From the NCBI RefSeq assembly GCF_029227855.1, contig NZ_CP074356.1: 64,000 nucleotides of DNA; one strand, 5' to 3'. The notes below the pieces were generated by a model, which did no database searches, was not told where the DNA came from, and saw nothing but the letters and a program-made list of their open reading frames with translations. The DNA is from Escherichia coli. GTDB lineage: Bacteria > Pseudomonadota > Gammaproteobacteria > Enterobacterales > Enterobacteriaceae. The position numbers and the translations under genes are program-made. This document shows, piece by piece, positions 22,316 through 47,072 of the stretch (position 1 is its first letter; the number at the start of each line of letters is the position of its first letter).

Positions 22316-24394
22316 TTAAATCAATGCCGATTTATCAATTCCCAGTCGCTTCATCCGTGACAGCAGAGTCGTGCGTTTCAGCCCCAGACGTTGCGCAGCG
22401 CCTTTAGGCCCGGCAACCACGCCGTTTGTTTCTTTCAGCACGCGAACAATCAACTGATATTCATCTTCGCCCTCCTGGGCGACAACCGTTGCGGCAGGCG
22501 GCGTTTCTGGTTCCGGTAAAACAATATCTGGCAGTGACAGCTGCAGCACGTTGCCGCGTGTTAGCAATACCGCGCGCTCGATGACGTTTTCCAGTTCGCG
22601 CACGTTACCCGGCCACTCCATGTTGCTCAAGGTGCGCAACGTCTCGGCAGGAATGCTGTCGATATTGCGCCCCAGACGACGGGCAATTTTGAAGGTAAAG
22701 GCTTTCGCCAGCAGCGGAATATCTTCCGGACGCTCGCGCAGGGGCGGCAGGTGGATCGGGAATACGTTCAGGCGGTAATAGAGATCGCTACGGAACTCTC
22801 GGTCGGCGACCATTTTTTTCAGATCGCGGTTAGTCGCGGCAATTAAACGTACGTCCGTCTGAATGATTTTGTTGCTGCCGAGGCGTTCAAACTCCTGTTC
22901 CTGTAATACACGCAGCAACTTCGGCTGTAACTCCAGTGGCATATCGCCCACTTCGTCGAGGAACAGGGAGCTTTTATCCGCCAGTTCAAAACGACCAATG
23001 CGCTGGGCGCTGGCACCGGTAAAAGCCCCACGCTCATGACCAAACAGATCGCTCTCCAGCAATCCGGCAGGCATCGCCGCGCAGTTCATTTTTACCATGC
23101 GGCGATTATTACGCCCACTGAGATTATGGATAGCACGGGCAATCAGCTCTTTACCTGTACCAGTTTCACCGAGAATCAGCACGGTACTGTCGCTTTGCGC
23201 CACCATTTCAACTTGTTTAAGTACGCTGTACATGGCTTCGCTGCGGCCAATAATCTCGCCAAATTCACTATCAACATTGTTGAGCTGCTCGGTCAGGGCG
23301 AGGTTTTCATCAACCAGCCGTTCTTTCAGACGATGGATTTCCTGATAGGCGAGGGCGTTATCGACAGCGATTGCCACACGTTCGGCAATCTGGCGCAGTA
23401 AATTCAGATTGGTAGTGGTAAACACTTTCTCTTCGCATTGCGCCAGTTTCAGCACGCCCAGCATGGTGTCGCCAGACATCAGCGGTAACAGGCACAAGGT
23501 TTGAATCTGGTTGCCCCAGGTGTCGAACAACATGCGTTCATAGGGGGCTAAATCGTCCCGCTCGTGGAGATTAATCAGCAGCATCTCTTTGCTTTTGAAC
23601 ACGCGTTCGGTGAGGGTTCCGGCTTCATCGACTTCGCTCTGTTCGTGGGCGGGATGCTGTTTATCAAGATAGTGAGTGGAGTAGATGTTGAGTTTGTTTT
23701 TACGGTGGCTGCGTAAGACGATGCTGATATCGTCAATGTCGAAGTAGTAATGGATTTCTTTGGCGACTTCGCTGACCAGTTCGTCCATATCCAGGCGGGA
23801 AAGCACCGCGTTGGTGATGGCGACCAGGATACGGAAGTTATCGCGCTCCCGGCATAACAACTCATAGTCGACATTATTGACGACGCGGCTCTGGATTTGT
23901 TCGGTGACGACAGAAACGATCTGCGTAAATGTTTGCAGACGATTGAACTCTTTTTCGCTCCAGGGGCGATCGTCATAACGAATAAATTCACAGCCACCAA
24001 AAATATGCCCTTCCGCCGCCAGTGGCATCAGGCAATAGTGACCAAATTTGGGGTATAGCCCACCTGCGGCCAGCTGCGGCCAGGTTTCACAAAATTCTTC
24101 GTAACTGCAATGCAGCGTATCAGGGCGCGACAAAATGCTGCGTACCGGACCGTGTGCCAGAACAGTTTCGTCTTCATATTTAATGGGGGTGTCTTTTTCA
24201 CGCGATGCGTAATAAGACGCACGTTGAGTCTGCGCTTGCCACAACACAATAGCCGCGTTGTCGGCGAGCGCAGAACGCTTTACCAGTTGCGAAAGAGCCT
24301 CACACAGCGAGGCCAGATCGGGCTGCTGCAATAGTGTCCGAGTGATGTCGAACAACCCTTGTTGTCCGAGATCACTCATCGGTGTATATGACAT
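22316..24394 (-). CDS. fhlA: Formate hydrogenlyase transcriptional activator FhlA (sigma-54 enhancer-binding protein)
   Basis: Track ORF 22316..24430; start set to the ATG encoding MSYTPMSDLGQQG (692 aa); GAF domains, AAA+ sigma-54 interaction domain ([14 protein letters not shown]) and C-terminal HTH. Confidence 0.95.
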   Translation of the reverse strand: MSYTPMSDLGQQGLFDITRTLLQQPDLASLCEALSQLVKRSALADNAAIVLWQAQTQRASYYASREKDTPIKYEDETVLAHGPVRSILSRPDTLHCSYEEFCETWPQLAAGGLYPKFGHYCLMPLAAEGHIFGGCEFIRYDDRPWSEKEFNRLQTFTQIVSVVTEQIQSRVVNNVDYELLCRERDNFRILVAITNAVLSRLDMDELVSEVAKEIHYYFDIDDISIVLRSHRKNKLNIYSTHYLDKQHPAHEQSEVDEAGTLTERVFKSKEMLLINLHERDDLAPYERMLFDTWGNQIQTLCLLPLMSGDTMLGVLKLAQCEEKVFTTTNLNLLRQIAERVAIAVDNALAYQEIHRLKERLVDENLALTEQLNNVDSEFGEIIGRSEAMYSVLKQVEMVAQSDSTVLILGETGTGKELIARAIHNLSGRNNRRMVKMNCAAMPAGLLESDLFGHERGAFTGASAQRIGRFELADKSSLFLDEVGDMPLELQPKLLRVLQEQEFERLGSNKIIQTDVRLIAATNRDLKKMVADREFRSDLYYRLNVFPIHLPPLRERPEDIPLLAKAFTFKIARRLGRNIDSIPAETLRTLSNMEWPGNVRELENVIERAVLLTRGNVLQLSLPDIVLPEPETPPAATVVAQEGEDEYQLIVRVLKETNGVVAGPKGAAQRLGLKRTTLLSRMKRLGIDKSALI

Positions 24395-26868: not shown

Positions 26869-27731
26869 CGCTGTGTCTCCAGCCAGTTCAGCCACTGGTC
26901 CATCCCTTCGCCGCTGGTGGCGGAAATAAGGATGATTTCAATTTCTGGATTGACTTCGCGGGCGCAGGCGATGCACTTCTCAACGTCAAAGTTGAGATAC
27001 GGCAGCAAGTCAACTTTGTTGAGCAGCATCAGCGAAGCTGCGGCAAACATATGCGGATATTTCAGCGGTTTGTCTTCACCTTCGGTAACGGAAAGCACCG
27101 CCACTTTGTGTTTTTCACCGAGATCGAAGCTGGCCGGGCACACGAGGTTGCCGACGTTTTCGATAAACAGAATACCGTTATCGTCCAGTGGCAGGCGCGG
27201 TGCGGCGTCGGCAATCATCTGTGCGTCAAGATGGCAGCCTTTACCGGTATTCACCTGAATCGCTGGTGTGCCGGTAGCGCGAATGCGTGCGGCATCGTTC
27301 ACGGTTTGCTGATCGCCTTCAATAACCGCGCACGGAACGCTGTCTTTCAGGCGCATTAAGGTTTCCGTCAGCAGGGTGGTTTTACCGGAACCAGGGCTGG
27401 AAACCAGGTTGAGCACCAGTTGCTTGCGGGCAGCAAAGCGCGCGCGGTTGCGTTCAGCCAGACGGTTATTTTTGTCCAGCACGTCAATTTCGACTTCCAG
27501 CATCCGACGCTGGCTCATGCCCGGCGCGTGAGTGCCCGCTTCGCCATGACCGTAATGCAGGTCGCCTTCTTCAGTCTGGCTGGGGGTAAATTCAGGCGTT
27601 TTAATGCCGGTGATTTTCATCTTCGGGCGTGCCGCCGGGGCAAATGGCGCGCTACGAAACGCGGAATGAGGGTTATGTTCATCACCCTCGATATACAGGT
27701 TGCCTTCACCGCAACCGCATGTTGTACACAT
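26859..27731 (-). CDS. hypB: Hydrogenase nickel-incorporation GTPase HypB
   Basis: Track ORF 290 aa; N-terminal [10 protein letters not shown] metal-binding motif; P-loop GSGKTT. Confidence 0.93.
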
Positions 27732-27734
27732 CGC

Positions 27735-28085
27735 TCACTCCTGGTCTATTTCTATCCGCCGAATCTGTAAACCGTCGTCTGCCACAATCTGTAGCATGTC
27801 ACCATGACACTGTGGACAGCGGCGGACGCGCTGGGTCAGTAGCGTCACATACTGTTGGCATGTTTCACACCAGCATTCGGCCTCTTGTTCTTCGAGGTGC
27901 AGTTTACAACCTTCCGCCACGCTGCCGCGGCAAACCAGATCAAAACAAAAGGCAAGAGAGCTGGTTTCGACACAAGAAAATGCGCCAATTTTGAGCCAGA
28001 CCCCAGTTACGCGTTTTGCGCCGTGTTTTGCGGCCTGCTGTTCGATCAATTCCAGTGCCCGTTGGCAGAGGGTTATTTCGTGCAT
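27735..28085 (-). CDS. hypA: Hydrogenase nickel-insertion protein HypA
   Basis: Track ORF 27735..28097 trimmed to the ATG encoding MHEITLC (116 aa); zinc-finger CxxC pairs. Confidence 0.9.
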   Translation of the reverse strand: MHEITLCQRALELIEQQAAKHGAKRVTGVWLKIGAFSCVETSSLAFCFDLVCRGSVAEGCKLHLEEQEAECWCETCQQYVTLLTQRVRRCPQCHGDMLQIVADDGLQIRRIEIDQE

Positions 28086-28115
28086 ATCGCCTCCCATTAA
28101 CTATTGCCAGCTACA

Positions 28116-28132
28116 AGCAATAATTGTGCCAG
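28116..28132 (-). promoter_or_regulatory. Sigma-54 (-24/-12) promoter of the hyp operon
   Basis: Reverse complement reads cTGGCACaattaTTGCt, with correct GG to GC spacing, upstream of hypA. Confidence 0.75.
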
Positions 28133-28157
28133 TGTTGATTATCCCTGCGGTGAATAA

Positions 28158-28196
28158 TGTCGATGATGTCGAAATGACACGTCGACACGGCGACGA
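28158..28196. promoter_or_regulatory. Candidate FhlA upstream activating region between the divergent hyp and hyc promoters
   Basis: Two direct TGTCGA repeats followed by an inverted TCGACA copy (tgtcgatgatgtcgaaatgacacgtcgaca); position matches the known FhlA-dependent hyc/hyp control region. Confidence 0.5.
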
Positions 28197-28244
28197 AATT
28201 CATCTTTAGCTTAAAAATCGCTTTAATAACAATAAATTAAAAGT

Positions 28245-28260
28245 TGGCACAAAAAATGCT
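28245..28260 (+). promoter_or_regulatory. Sigma-54 (-24/-12) promoter of the hyc operon
   Basis: TGGCACaaaaaaTGCt with canonical spacing, 37 nt upstream of the hycA ATG. Confidence 0.75.
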
Positions 28261-28296
28261 TAAAGCTGGCATCTCTGTTAAACGGGTAACCTGACA

Positions 28297-28758
28297 ATGA
28301 CTATTTGGGAAATAAGCGAGAAAGCCGATTACATCGCACAGCGGCATCGTCGCCTACAGGACCAGTGGCACATCTACTGCAATTCGCTGGTTCAGGGGAT
28401 CACGTTATCGAAAGCGCGCCTGCATCACGCCATGAGCTGCGCGCCGGACAAAGAACTCTGTTTCGTCCTTTTTGAACATTTTCGCATTTACGTCACCCTG
28501 GCGGATGGCTTTAACAGCCACACCATCGAGTATTACGTCGAAACAAAAGATGGTGAAGACAAACAGCGGATTGCGCAGGCGCAACTGAGCATTGACGGCA
28601 TGATTGATGGCAAGGTCAACATCCGCGATCGCGAACAGGTTCTGGAACACTATCTCGAAAAAATCGCTGGCGTTTACGACAGCTTATACACCGCCATTGA
28701 AAACAATGTGCCGGTGAATTTAAGCCAACTGGTAAAGGGACAAAGCCCGGCAGCATGA
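28297..28758 (+). CDS. hycA: Formate hydrogenlyase regulatory protein HycA
   Basis: Track ORF 153 aa; first gene of the hyc operon. Confidence 0.9.
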   Translation: MTIWEISEKADYIAQRHRRLQDQWHIYCNSLVQGITLSKARLHHAMSCAPDKELCFVLFEHFRIYVTLADGFNSHTIEYYVETKDGEDKQRIAQAQLSIDGMIDGKVNIRDREQVLEHYLEKIAGVYDSLYTAIENNVPVNLSQLVKGQSPAA

Positions 28759-28882
28759 GCTGAGGCTTTGCCCGTTTTGCAGGCGTTACGCCTGTTTGGG
28801 GATGGGCGTGTCGATGAGTGTCGAAAATGACATTTCATCGGCATGTTTTCGTCAAAAATGACAATCACCTGAGGAATGCCTG

Positions 28883-29494
28883 GTGAATCGTTTTGTAATT
28901 GCTGACTCCACGCTCTGTATCGGCTGCCACACCTGTGAGGCCGCCTGTTCAGAGACGCATCGCCAGCACGGCCTGCAATCAATGCCGCGCCTGCGAGTGA
29001 TGCTCAATGAAAAAGAATCTGCGCCGCAGCTCTGTCACCACTGTGAAGATGCGCCCTGTGCGGTGGTCTGCCCGGTTAACGCCATCACCCGCGTTGATGG
29101 GGCCGTGCAGTTGAATGAAAGCCTGTGCGTAAGCTGCAAACTGTGCGGCATCGCCTGCCCGTTTGGCGCAATTGAATTTTCCGGCAGCCGTCCGCTGGAT
29201 ATTCCGGCAAACGCCAATACCCCGAAAGCGCCACCGGCACCGCCTGCTCCGGCGCGTGTCAGCACATTGCTTGACTGGGTGCCAGGTATTCGCGCGATCG
29301 CCGTCAAATGTGACCTTTGTAGCTTTGATGAACAAGGTCCGGCCTGCGTGCGGATGTGCCCGACTAAAGCCCTGCATCTGGTGGATAACACCGATATCGC
29401 CCGCGTCAGCAAACGTAAGCGTGAGCTGACCTTTAACACGGACTTTGGCGATCTCACCTTGTTTCAGCAGGCTCAAAGTGGAGAGGCTAAATGA
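28883..29494 (+). CDS. hycB: Formate hydrogenlyase subunit 2, 4Fe-4S ferredoxin-type
   Basis: Track ORF 203 aa; multiple CxxCxxCxxxCP clusters. Confidence 0.93.
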   Translation: MNRFVIADSTLCIGCHTCEAACSETHRQHGLQSMPRLRVMLNEKESAPQLCHHCEDAPCAVVCPVNAITRVDGAVQLNESLCVSCKLCGIACPFGAIEFSGSRPLDIPANANTPKAPPAPPAPARVSTLLDWVPGIRAIAVKCDLCSFDEQGPACVRMCPTKALHLVDNTDIARVSKRKRELTFNTDFGDLTLFQQAQSGEAK

Positions 29495-31317
29495 GCGCAA
29501 TTTCCCTGATCAATAGCGGCGTGGCGTGGTTTGTCGCCGCCGCTGTTCTGGCATTTCTCTTTTCTTTTCAAAAGGCGCTAAGCGGCTGGATAGCCGGAAT
29601 TGGCGGCGCGGTGGGTAGTCTGTATACGGCAGCCGCGGGCTTCACTGTACTGACTGGCGCGGTTGGCGTGAGCGGTGCGCTGTCGCTGGTAAGCTACGAT
29701 GTGCAAATCTCTCCGCTTAACGCGATTTGGCTGATTACGCTCGGCCTGTGCGGTCTGTTTGTCAGCCTCTACAACATTGACTGGCATCGCCACGCGCAGG
29801 TGAAGTGCAACGGCTTGCAGATCAATATGTTGATGGCTGCTGCCGTCTGTGCCGTCATCGCCAGCAACCTCGGTATGTTCGTGGTAATGGCAGAAATCAT
29901 GGCCTTGTGCGCGGTGTTCCTCACCAACAACAGCAAAGAGGGCAAACTGTGGTTTGCACTGGGGCGTCTTGGCACTCTGCTGCTGGCGATTGCTTGCTGG
30001 CTGCTGTGGCAGCGTTACGGCACGCTGGATCTGCGCCTGCTGGATATGCGTATGCAACAGCTGCCGCTCGGTTCCGATATCTGGCTGCTCGGTGTGATTG
30101 GCTTTGGCCTGCTGGCCGGGATTATTCCGCTGCACGGCTGGGTGCCGCAGGCACATGCTAACGCCTCTGCGCCAGCTGCCGCGTTGTTTTCCACGGTAGT
30201 CATGAAAATTGGCCTGCTGGGCATTTTAACCCTGTCACTGCTGGGCGGTAATGCACCGCTGTGGTGGGGAATCGCGCTGCTGGTGCTCGGCATGATCACC
30301 GCGTTCGTCGGTGGTCTGTATGCGTTGATGGAACACAACATCCAGCGCCTGCTGGCTTACCACACCCTGGAAAATATCGGCATTATCCTGCTGGGGCTGG
30401 GCGCTGGCGTAACGGGTATCGCGCTCGAACAACCGGCGCTGATTGCTCTTGGCCTGGTCGGTGGTCTGTACCATCTGCTTAACCATAGCCTGTTCAAAAG
30501 CGTACTTTTCCTCGGGGCGGGGAGCGTCTGGTTCCGTACCGGTCATCGCGATATCGAAAAACTCGGTGGTATTGGCAAGAAAATGCCGGTTATCTCCATC
30601 GCCATGTTAGTTGGGCTGATGGCAATGGCTGCGTTGCCGCCGCTGAACGGGTTTGCCGGGGAATGGGTTATCTATCAATCCTTCTTCAAACTGAGCAATA
30701 GTGGCGCGTTTGTTGCCCGTCTGCTGGGGCCGCTGCTCGCAGTGGGTCTGGCAATTACCGGTGCGCTAGCGGTGATGTGTATGGCGAAAGTCTATGGCGT
30801 CACGTTCCTCGGCGCGCCGCGTACCAAAGAAGCCGAAAACGCCACCTGTGCGCCGCTCCTGATGAGCGTAAGCGTAGTGGCACTGGCGATTTGCTGCGTA
30901 ATTGGCGGTGTTGCTGCGCCGTGGCTGCTGCCGATGCTCTCTGCTGCTGTACCTCTGCCGCTGGAGCCTGCTAACACCACCGTTTCTCAACCCATGATCA
31001 CGTTGCTGCTGATTGCCTGCCCGCTGCTGCCATTCATCATTATGGCGATTTGCAAAGGCGACCGTTTGCCGTCGCGTTCCCGCGGCGCGGCCTGGGTGTG
31101 CGGCTACGACCACGAAAAATCAATGGTGATTACCGCTCACGGTTTTGCCATGCCGGTGAAACAGGCGTTTGCGCCAGTGCTGAAACTGCGCAAATGGCTG
31201 AATCCGGTGTCGCTGGTGCCGGGCTGGCAGTGCGAAGGCAGTGCGTTGCTGTTCCGCCGGATGGCGCTGGTTGAACTGGCGGTGCTGGTGGTGATTATTG
31301 TTTCACGAGGAGCCTGA
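29491..31317 (+). CDS. hycC: Formate hydrogenlyase subunit 3, membrane antiporter-like (NuoL/M/N family)
   Basis: Track ORF 608 aa, polytopic membrane protein. Confidence 0.93.
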   Translation: MSAISLINSGVAWFVAAAVLAFLFSFQKALSGWIAGIGGAVGSLYTAAAGFTVLTGAVGVSGALSLVSYDVQISPLNAIWLITLGLCGLFVSLYNIDWHRHAQVKCNGLQINMLMAAAVCAVIASNLGMFVVMAEIMALCAVFLTNNSKEGKLWFALGRLGTLLLAIACWLLWQRYGTLDLRLLDMRMQQLPLGSDIWLLGVIGFGLLAGIIPLHGWVPQAHANASAPAAALFSTVVMKIGLLGILTLSLLGGNAPLWWGIALLVLGMITAFVGGLYALMEHNIQRLLAYHTLENIGIILLGLGAGVTGIALEQPALIALGLVGGLYHLLNHSLFKSVLFLGAGSVWFRTGHRDIEKLGGIGKKMPVISIAMLVGLMAMAALPPLNGFAGEWVIYQSFFKLSNSGAFVARLLGPLLAVGLAITGALAVMCMAKVYGVTFLGAPRTKEAENATCAPLLMSVSVVALAICCVIGGVAAPWLLPMLSAAVPLPLEPANTTVSQPMITLLLIACPLLPFIIMAICKGDRLPSRSRGAAWVCGYDHEKSMVITAHGFAMPVKQAFAPVLKLRKWLNPVSLVPGWQCEGSALLFRRMALVELAVLVVIIVSRGA

Positions 31318-41292: not shown

Positions 41293-41296
41293 ACAT

Positions 41297-41335
41297 TGTC
41301 ATCACATGTCATCGTCACTAGTGTCGATGACATCG
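41297..41335. promoter_or_regulatory. Repeat cluster upstream of hydN: two direct TGTCATC copies plus an inverted GATGACA, and the palindrome CGATG-a-CATCG
   Basis: Read directly; architecture parallels the TGTCGA repeat cluster in the hyc/hyp control region. Confidence 0.35.
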
Positions 41336-41440
41336 TTTTTCCTGCATTACAGAATTTAATTTCCTTAAATAACAGTAAATTAAAAACTGGCATGATTTGT
41401 GAATGTATCGGCGCATTAACTGTCATTGCTGGAGAATTTG

Positions 41441-47054: not shown

Positions 47055-47072
47055 TTGCAGATTGCGTGCCAG
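47055..47072 (-). promoter_or_regulatory. Sigma-54 promoter of norVW
   Basis: Reverse complement reads cTGGCACgcaatcTGCAa, with canonical -24/-12 spacing, upstream of norV. Confidence 0.8.

Follow-up and report, generated by a model that had tools for sequence, protein, structure and literature searches.

The divergent sigma-54/FhlA control region between hypA and hycA of Escherichia coli

Introduction

In Escherichia coli the genes hypA and hycA lie back to back, and the 211-bp spacer between them is the control region for two transcription units that are read in opposite directions. The question raised by this locus is how so short a region serves both sides, and which of its sequence elements act on which promoter. 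The locus is the hyc-hyp control region of E. coli K-12 (Lutz et al. 1990; Schlensog et al. 1994; Hopper et al. 1994; Leonhartsberger et al. 2000). An earlier note, made from the letters of a 64-kb stretch of E. coli DNA (the window, meaning the whole stretch that was analysed), had described back-to-back sigma-54 promoters with a cluster of repeats between them. That reading is correct, and the divergent sigma-54 region that it describes is already known and conserved.

Here we report a computational analysis of the region. We conclude, with a probability of roughly 0.93, that it serves the E. coli formate regulon as a divergent control region in the textbook sigma-54/FhlA sense. The sequences, matrix ranks, conservation and phasing on which this conclusion draws come from the present analysis, and sigma-54 occupancy together with sigma-54- and FhlA-dependence are taken from published work.

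Results

Identity and conservation of the locus

The genes on either side of the spacer had been named hypA and hycA in the earlier note, and both identities were borne out by RefSeq annotation and by Pfam (Table 1). The Pfam domains recognised in FhlA, whose gene lies further along the hyp unit, were GAF, Sigma54_activat and the AAA lid, with HTH_8 falling just below threshold (21.0 bits against a cutoff of 22). A 1.1-kb stretch around hypA/hycA was 100% identical to many E. coli chromosomes, in which hypB, hypA and hycA are annotated there, and this stretch was found in 5,425 of 5,426 complete genomes.

Compared with K-12 MG1655, the hypA/hycA spacer was identical at 210 of its 211 bases and the spacer between hycA and hycB was identical throughout, so the published work on K-12 applies directly here. 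Subtracting a window position from 2,878,732 gives the corresponding K-12 v3 coordinate. The one substitution spares the two promoters and the two FhlA arrays. It falls at 28220, with G here and T in K-12, inside the A/T-rich stretch 5' of the IHF-like core described below.

Orthologues were drawn from 80 loci encoding HycA relatives, with one genome per species, spanning Escherichia, Salmonella, Citrobacter, Enterobacter, Klebsiella, Raoultella, Kluyvera, Kosakonia, Lelliottia and others. All 80 have hypA divergent from hycA, across a spacer of 188-223 bp. Aligned, the spacers displayed conserved footprints in a fixed order: the hypA ribosome-binding site; the hyp -12 and -24 elements; a core, ATGTCGAyGATGwCGAAATGACAyGTCG, kept in all genera examined; a stretch rich in A/T that closes with AATCAATnnnTTAAAA; the -24 and -12 elements of hyc; and the hycA leader.

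The 5' leader of hycA (28272-28296, TCTCTGTTAAACGGGTAACCTGACA) is unusually conserved across genera for a 26-nt leader that has no canonical Shine-Dalgarno sequence. Its conservation could reflect translational control, contacts downstream of the promoter or a protein site.

Table 1. Features of the hypA/hycA control region in window coordinates, and distances between its elements in orthologues.
Feature	Sequence	Position or distance	Strand	Basis
hypA CDS, first gene of the hypABCDE-fhlA operon		27735..28085	-	ORF; RefSeq annotation, 100% identity; Pfam HypA, E = 7.6e-31
hycA CDS (FhlA antagonist), first gene of the hyc operon		28297..28758	+	ORF; RefSeq annotation, 100% identity; Pfam HycA_repressor, E = 1.3e-90
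fhlA (sigma-54 enhancer-binding protein), downstream of hypE in the hyp transcription unit		22316..24394	-	Annotation; ORF; Pfam
hyp sigma-54 promoter	CTGGCACAATTATTGCT	28132..28116	-	-24 GG at 28130-28129; -12 GC at 28118-28117; predicted start 28105
hyc sigma-54 promoter	TGGCACAAAAAATGCT	28245..28260	+	-24 GG at 28246-28247; -12 GC at 28258-28259; predicted start 28271
Central FhlA enhancer (UAS-1)	ATGTCGATGATGTCGAAATGACACGTCGACACGGCGACGAAAT	28157..28199		FhlA matrix rank 2; sole tight TGTCGA cluster; cross-genus core
Second FhlA enhancer (UAS-2)	TGTCGATGAGTGTCGAAAATGACA...TTTTCGTCAAAAATGACA	28809..28866		FhlA matrix ranks 1 and 6; conserved; aligns with central array
IHF-like core	TAACAATAAATTA (consensus WATCAANNNNTTR, one mismatch)	28227..28239	+	A/T-rich 5' flank; ends 5 nt before hyc -24
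Distance between the two promoter 16-mers		classes 91 / 101-102 / 111-115 bp		Orthologues
Distance from central array core to hyc -24		classes 49 / 60-63 (one at 65) / 71-72 bp		Orthologues
Distance from hyp promoter to array core		classes 39-41 / 48-52 bp		Orthologues

Two outward-facing sigma-54 promoters

Both promoters are oriented outward within the one spacer, and the coordinates at which the earlier note had called their -24/-12 elements (28116..28132 on the minus strand, 28245..28260 on the plus strand) proved exact. The hyp promoter is the sole exact match to TGGCAC-N5-TTGC in the window, and the hyc promoter departs from this consensus at one position. The same holds when GG and GC are required to stand exactly 10 bp apart within TGGCAC-N5-TTGCW, which hyp fits exactly and hyc with one mismatch. 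Counted from the C of the -12 GC, the A of the start codon is 32 nt away at hypA and 38 nt away at hycA.

Matches to TGGCAC-N5-TTGC with one mismatch numbered 10 in the window against 7.6 expected in shuffles, which is no excess over chance. Therefore, we scored 127,970 window positions with an RpoN matrix derived from 186 promoters (printed in PMC7658346). The hyp core (TGGCACAATTATTGC, 28131..28117, minus strand) ranked first of all positions at 18.9 bits, and the hyc core (TGGCACAAAAAATGC, 28245..28259, plus strand) ranked third at 15.3 bits. Among the 81 distinct orthologous spacers the GG and the GC of both promoters were invariant, and the spacing between the -12 GC and the ATG stayed within 36-39 nt for hycA and within 30-36 nt for hypA, apart from one spacer at 44 nt. 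It is thus matrix rank, position and conservation that make the two promoters significant, simple consensus counts being insufficient for this by themselves.

Published data place sigma-54 on these same sequences. The hyp and hyc 17-mers are letter for letter the sigma-54 ChIP-seq motifs OS28 (hypA) and OS27 (hycA) of Bonocora et al. 2015 (PMC4591121), whose Table 1 marks the two promoters as 'experimentally confirmed in EcoCyc' and whose predicted starts, 20 nt before hypA and 26 nt before hycA, correspond to window positions 28105 and 28271. RpoN holoenzyme binds the hypA/hycA spacer in vitro (gSELEX peak, PMC8743547). ChIP-chip places sigma-54 on the orthologous sites of Salmonella, and expression there is sigma-54-dependent, 26-fold for hyc and 5.6-fold for hyp, with FhlA named as the activator (PMC3844500). 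The title of Lutz et al. 1990, as it is cited in PMC3844500, refers to the 'divergent NtrA-dependent promoters' of this cluster. Entries for hycA and hypA are absent from the supplement of a sigma-factor network paper. A scan of positions 27900-28950 for sigma-70 promoters and terminators returned nothing that exceeded the shuffle expectation.

The two promoters also mirror each other. Over the 27 nt that run from the -24 element to the predicted +1 (28105-28131 against 28245-28271), the two sides are 81% complementary. Each promoter carries a second CTGGCA that ends at the predicted start, and in the orthologues GGGGCA or GGCA is retained at the +1 of each promoter. This symmetry could be the remnant of an inverted duplication or could reflect a shared initiation context.

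One further candidate was considered and rejected as a likely promoter. This sigma-54-like site within hycA (TGGCACATCTACTGCA, 28366-28381, plus strand) ranks fourth with the RpoN matrix and has the orientation of hyc. Trp and Cys codons account for its GG and GC, as the site overlaps the residues W-H-I-Y-C; orthologues often have TGT or CGT there, and its conservation does not go beyond coding constraints. The site is absent from the main-text peak tables of PMC4591121.

The central array of FhlA-type repeats

Between the promoters, TGTCGA occurs at 28158-28163 and 28167-28172 and its inverse TCGACA at 28182-28187. This is the only site in the window with at least three TGTCGA-type copies within 30 bp, and given the 53 copies present the probability of such a cluster arising anywhere in 64 kb is ~0.014. 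The repeats form part of a longer array over 28157-28199, made up of the units ATGTCGATG / ATGTCGAA / ATGACACG / TCGACACG / GCGACGAAAT, in which five G(T/A)C cores are spaced at 9, 8, 8 and 8 bp. The direct repeat and inverted copy that the earlier note had reported at 28158..28196 are thus present, in an account that stopped short of the five-core array.

We asked whether the -24/-12 matches and the hexamer repeats could be chance resemblance in an A/T-rich spacer. The unremarkable count of one-mismatch consensus matches would agree with this, as would the fact that short hexamer repeats are common. The matrix ranks, from ~128,000 positions, nevertheless speak against it, and so do the GG and GC kept unchanged by 81 of 81 spacers, the in-vivo ChIP-seq peaks on exactly these motifs with in-vitro gSELEX binding, and a TGTCGA cluster that is unique in the window and conserved across genera. 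Matrix rank, conservation, ChIP-seq and gSELEX already refute chance resemblance, to which we attach next to no probability.

The array carries the features of an FhlA target. With a matrix built from 13 characterised FhlA sites (PMC7658346), which reads TGWC-RAWRAT-GWCA, positions 28158-28171 scored 15.3 bits and ranked second in the window. The FhlA consensus CATTTCGTACGAAATG, attributed to Leonhartsberger 2000 in the part of PMC4987338 that quotes it, is represented by half-sites, TCGAAATG at 28170-28177 and ACGAAATT at 28192-28199; this consensus is loose, and its full 16-bp palindrome was unmatched in the central array. The internal spacing of the unit TGTCGAAA(A)TGACA differs by one base between the two arrays of this locus and between species. 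Motifs of the same type recur in the formate regulon, in the hycA-hycB spacer and upstream of fdhF, hyfA and hydN, the last three also being picked by the matrix. According to the papers that cite them, Schlensog 1994 and Leonhartsberger 2000 reported that purified FhlA protects its upstream activating sequence and that this sequence is needed for induction by formate. The published matrix, the consensus half-sites and the core kept in all genera examined together support the proposal, already made in the earlier note, that these repeats are FhlA upstream activating sequences.

The cluster might instead be mainly the target of another protein, such as ModE, HycA or a nitrate or oxygen regulator. 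A reference-list entry names ModE as a secondary activator of hyc, and, to our knowledge, how HycA antagonises FhlA has yet to be settled. Against this, the cluster matches both the FhlA matrix and the consensus half-sites, and its motif recurs at FhlA-dependent promoters. Moreover, ModE-type elements have the form TATAT-N7-TAYAT, and none was evident by eye within 28157-28199. We consider a main role for such a protein very improbable, and FhlA remains the preferred occupant of the array.

Both arrays of the locus are conserved in Escherichia, Salmonella, Citrobacter, Enterobacter, Klebsiella, Kluyvera, Kosakonia and others, with the right-hand part of the central array (GGCGACGAAAT) conserved only in Escherichia, Salmonella and Citrobacter. 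The distribution of this part bears on the inverted repeat CGTCGCCGTGTCGACG (28195..28180, minus strand), which a scan flagged as terminator-like and which could be read as an RNA hairpin or terminator. Such sites are expected 1.6 times in shuffles, though, and this one alone was found. Both divergent transcripts begin downstream of it, so none that is known runs through 28180-28195, and its right half, GGCGACG, is not conserved beyond the same three genera. An Rfam scan of 27500-29500 gave only a sub-threshold isrA match inside hycB (28915-29050, E = 0.7) and no RNA element in the spacer. The chance that the repeat acts as a hairpin or terminator is, in our judgement, vanishingly small.

Among the Klebsiella/Raoultella loci (L036, L039, L043, L058, L063 and L083), the central array of the sampled spacers (L036, L058 and L063) has a 12-nt insertion that brings in extra GTC/GAC units. 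The central array is expandable by units of about one helical turn.

A second array between hycA and hycB

The highest FhlA matrix score in the window falls outside the hypA/hycA spacer. It belongs to positions 28819-28832 (TGTCGAAAATGACA), and the sixth-ranked match, at 28850-28863, lies close by; both are in the hycA-hycB spacer, within the second array (UAS-2, Table 1). Over its first 24 nt, UAS-2 departs from the central array only by two one-base gaps. Among 78 distinct orthologous hycA-hycB spacers the UAS-2 element TTTCGTCAAAAATGAC is nearly invariant, and the array is conserved at least as strongly as its central counterpart. As UAS-2 is strongly conserved and has the higher FhlA score, it must have a selected function. 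The array spans +538 to +595 relative to the predicted hyc start and -704 to -761 relative to the predicted hyp start. The earlier account of the control region as a good fit to the textbook model was supported, and it had missed both this second cluster and the IHF-like site.

A search of the literature for text on an FhlA site between hycA and hycB found nothing usable, the original papers being outside its reach. Papers from the Böck laboratory reportedly credit the downstream, hycA-hycB array with activating hyp and the central array with activating hyc. In a strain where hycA had been replaced by fdhF fused to hycB, most of the native hyc-promoter activity was lost (bioRxiv 10.1101/2021.01.06.425572). 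That report is silent on whether the hycA-hycB spacer and UAS-2 went with the replacement; the loss of activity may hint at an important role for the hycA-hycB region, with which it fits.

Directly after the hycA stop codon, a hairpin (CAGGCG-TTA-CGCCTG) followed by TTTGGGG occupies 28780-28801. Only the long hycA-hycB spacers, those of Escherichia, Salmonella and Citrobacter, contain it, and the terminator scan left it unflagged.

An IHF-like site and the spacing of the elements

Next to the hyc promoter lies a match to the IHF consensus (Table 1). Matches to WATCAANNNNTTR with one mismatch showed no excess over chance in the window, and the E. coli core by itself is not significant. Across the orthologues, the consensus recurs in a fixed place, 5-6 nt ahead of the hyc -24, being perfect in 27 of 81 and having one mismatch in a further 29. 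Hopper et al. 1994 reportedly described binding of IHF in the hypA/hycA spacer.

Relative to the predicted starts, the central array extends from -114 to -72 on the hyc side and from -52 to -94 on the hyp side. When arrays are expected ~80-150 bp upstream of a sigma-54 start, this placement suits hyc and is marginal for hyp. The array lies ~70-115 bp upstream of the hyc start and a putative IHF-type bend site stands between it and the hyc -24, which leads us to take it as the hyc enhancer. Distances among the promoters and the array fall into discrete classes in the orthologues (Table 1). Insertions and deletions in roughly helical-turn steps, amounting to only about four independent events, suggest a face-of-helix constraint, as would be expected of an enhancer that loops.

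These distances also provide an argument for a different arrangement, implied by the earlier note, in which the central cluster would be a single bidirectional enhancer shared by hyp and hyc, leaving the hycA-hycB cluster auxiliary or for something else. The cluster does sit between the two promoters, and its distances to both vary only in roughly helical-turn steps, which points to a face-of-helix constraint on the hyp side too. A precedent exists in the divergent sigma-54 promoters of zraP/zraSR, which reportedly have a central site for the activator ZraR. However, only ~50-95 bp separate the array from the predicted hyp start and no bend site intervenes, the IHF-like site being on the hyc side only. 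The higher matrix score and at least equal conservation of the hycA-hycB cluster also tell against a single shared enhancer, as does the primary literature, which reportedly gives that cluster to hyp. We regard a shared enhancer as unlikely. The assignment that we prefer, central array to hyc and UAS-2 to hyp, draws on geometry and on these literature reports, and UAS-2 is most likely the main hyp enhancer, looping over ~700 bp.

Discussion

The elements described above can be placed in a mechanism of the familiar sigma-54 kind. Sigma-54 RNA polymerase would occupy the two back-to-back -24/-12 promoters in closed complexes, with the hyp promoter reading leftward into hypABCDE-fhlA and the hyc promoter rightward into hycABCDEFGHI. 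Both would stay silent until FhlA, an AAA+ activator that responds to formate, contacts the polymerase from the G(T/A)C-rich arrays by DNA looping and opens the promoter through ATP hydrolysis. On the hyc side, IHF would probably bend the DNA. As fhlA ends the hyp unit and hycA, encoding an antagonist of FhlA, heads the hyc unit, the arrangement would build both positive and negative feedback on FhlA into the locus.

A more speculative possibility is that the two near-identical arrays flanking hycA work together as a paired enhancer. Bridged by an FhlA oligomer, they would loop out hycA, and both promoters would fire from a single nucleoprotein complex. This would fit the helical-turn steps of the indels to either side of the central array, and also the mirrored promoters, with their possible origin as an ancestral inverted-duplication remnant. 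We know of no description of such a cooperative two-enhancer geometry for the formate regulon, and we hold it to be a long shot. The arrangement that we favour remains that of two arrays, each serving mainly one promoter.

Related systems share parts of this design. The gene for formate dehydrogenase H, fdhF, is the founding member of the formate regulon and likewise combines a sigma-54 promoter (TGGCATAAAAGATGCA) with an FhlA array that lies ~100 bp upstream, is rich in G(T/A)C and includes CGTCAAAACTGACG and the half-sites TATTTCGT and TTTTTCGT. It differs in having a single unidirectional promoter and an array that scores 8.7 bits with the FhlA matrix, against 15-17 bits for the hyc/hyp arrays. 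Within the window, 13 kb away, the hydN-hypF promoter is another that is regulated by FhlA: its sigma-54 motif (CTGGCATGATTTGTGAA, 41387-41403, plus strand) is the ChIP-seq site OS26, and a cluster of TGTCA/TGTCGA repeats (41295-41335) lies ~60-100 bp upstream, with an A/T-rich stretch between. In contrast to the hypA/hycA region, hydN-hypF is unidirectional, has a weaker -12 element (TGA rather than TGC) and arranges its repeat units in another way.

The zraP/zraSR region (Leonhartsberger et al. 2001) resembles this locus in its layout, with two back-to-back sigma-54 promoters flanking activator sites and the activator gene transcribed from one of them. It responds to a different activator and a different signal (zinc), and its single central site reportedly acts in both directions, whereas here a second copy of the enhancer lies 650 bp away.

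The discovery value of the locus is small, its promoters having been described in 1990 and re-confirmed genome-wide. Its use is as a positive control, for a sigma-54/enhancer architecture was correctly recognised from sequence alone. What the analysis adds are refinements: the second enhancer, the IHF-like site, the phasing and the mirrored promoters. Looking ahead, the conservation of helical phase and the second conserved enhancer could guide synthetic re-wiring of formate hydrogenlyase for the production of hydrogen or formate.

Two further sites in the window coincide with published sigma-54 peaks. The norV sigma-54 promoter (TGGCACGCAATCTGCA, 47056-47071, minus strand) holds rank 2 with the RpoN matrix and is the ChIP-seq site OS25, and an intragenic site in hycC (TGGCGCGTTTGTTGCC, 30702-30717, plus strand) is the published intragenic sigma-54 peak IS31.
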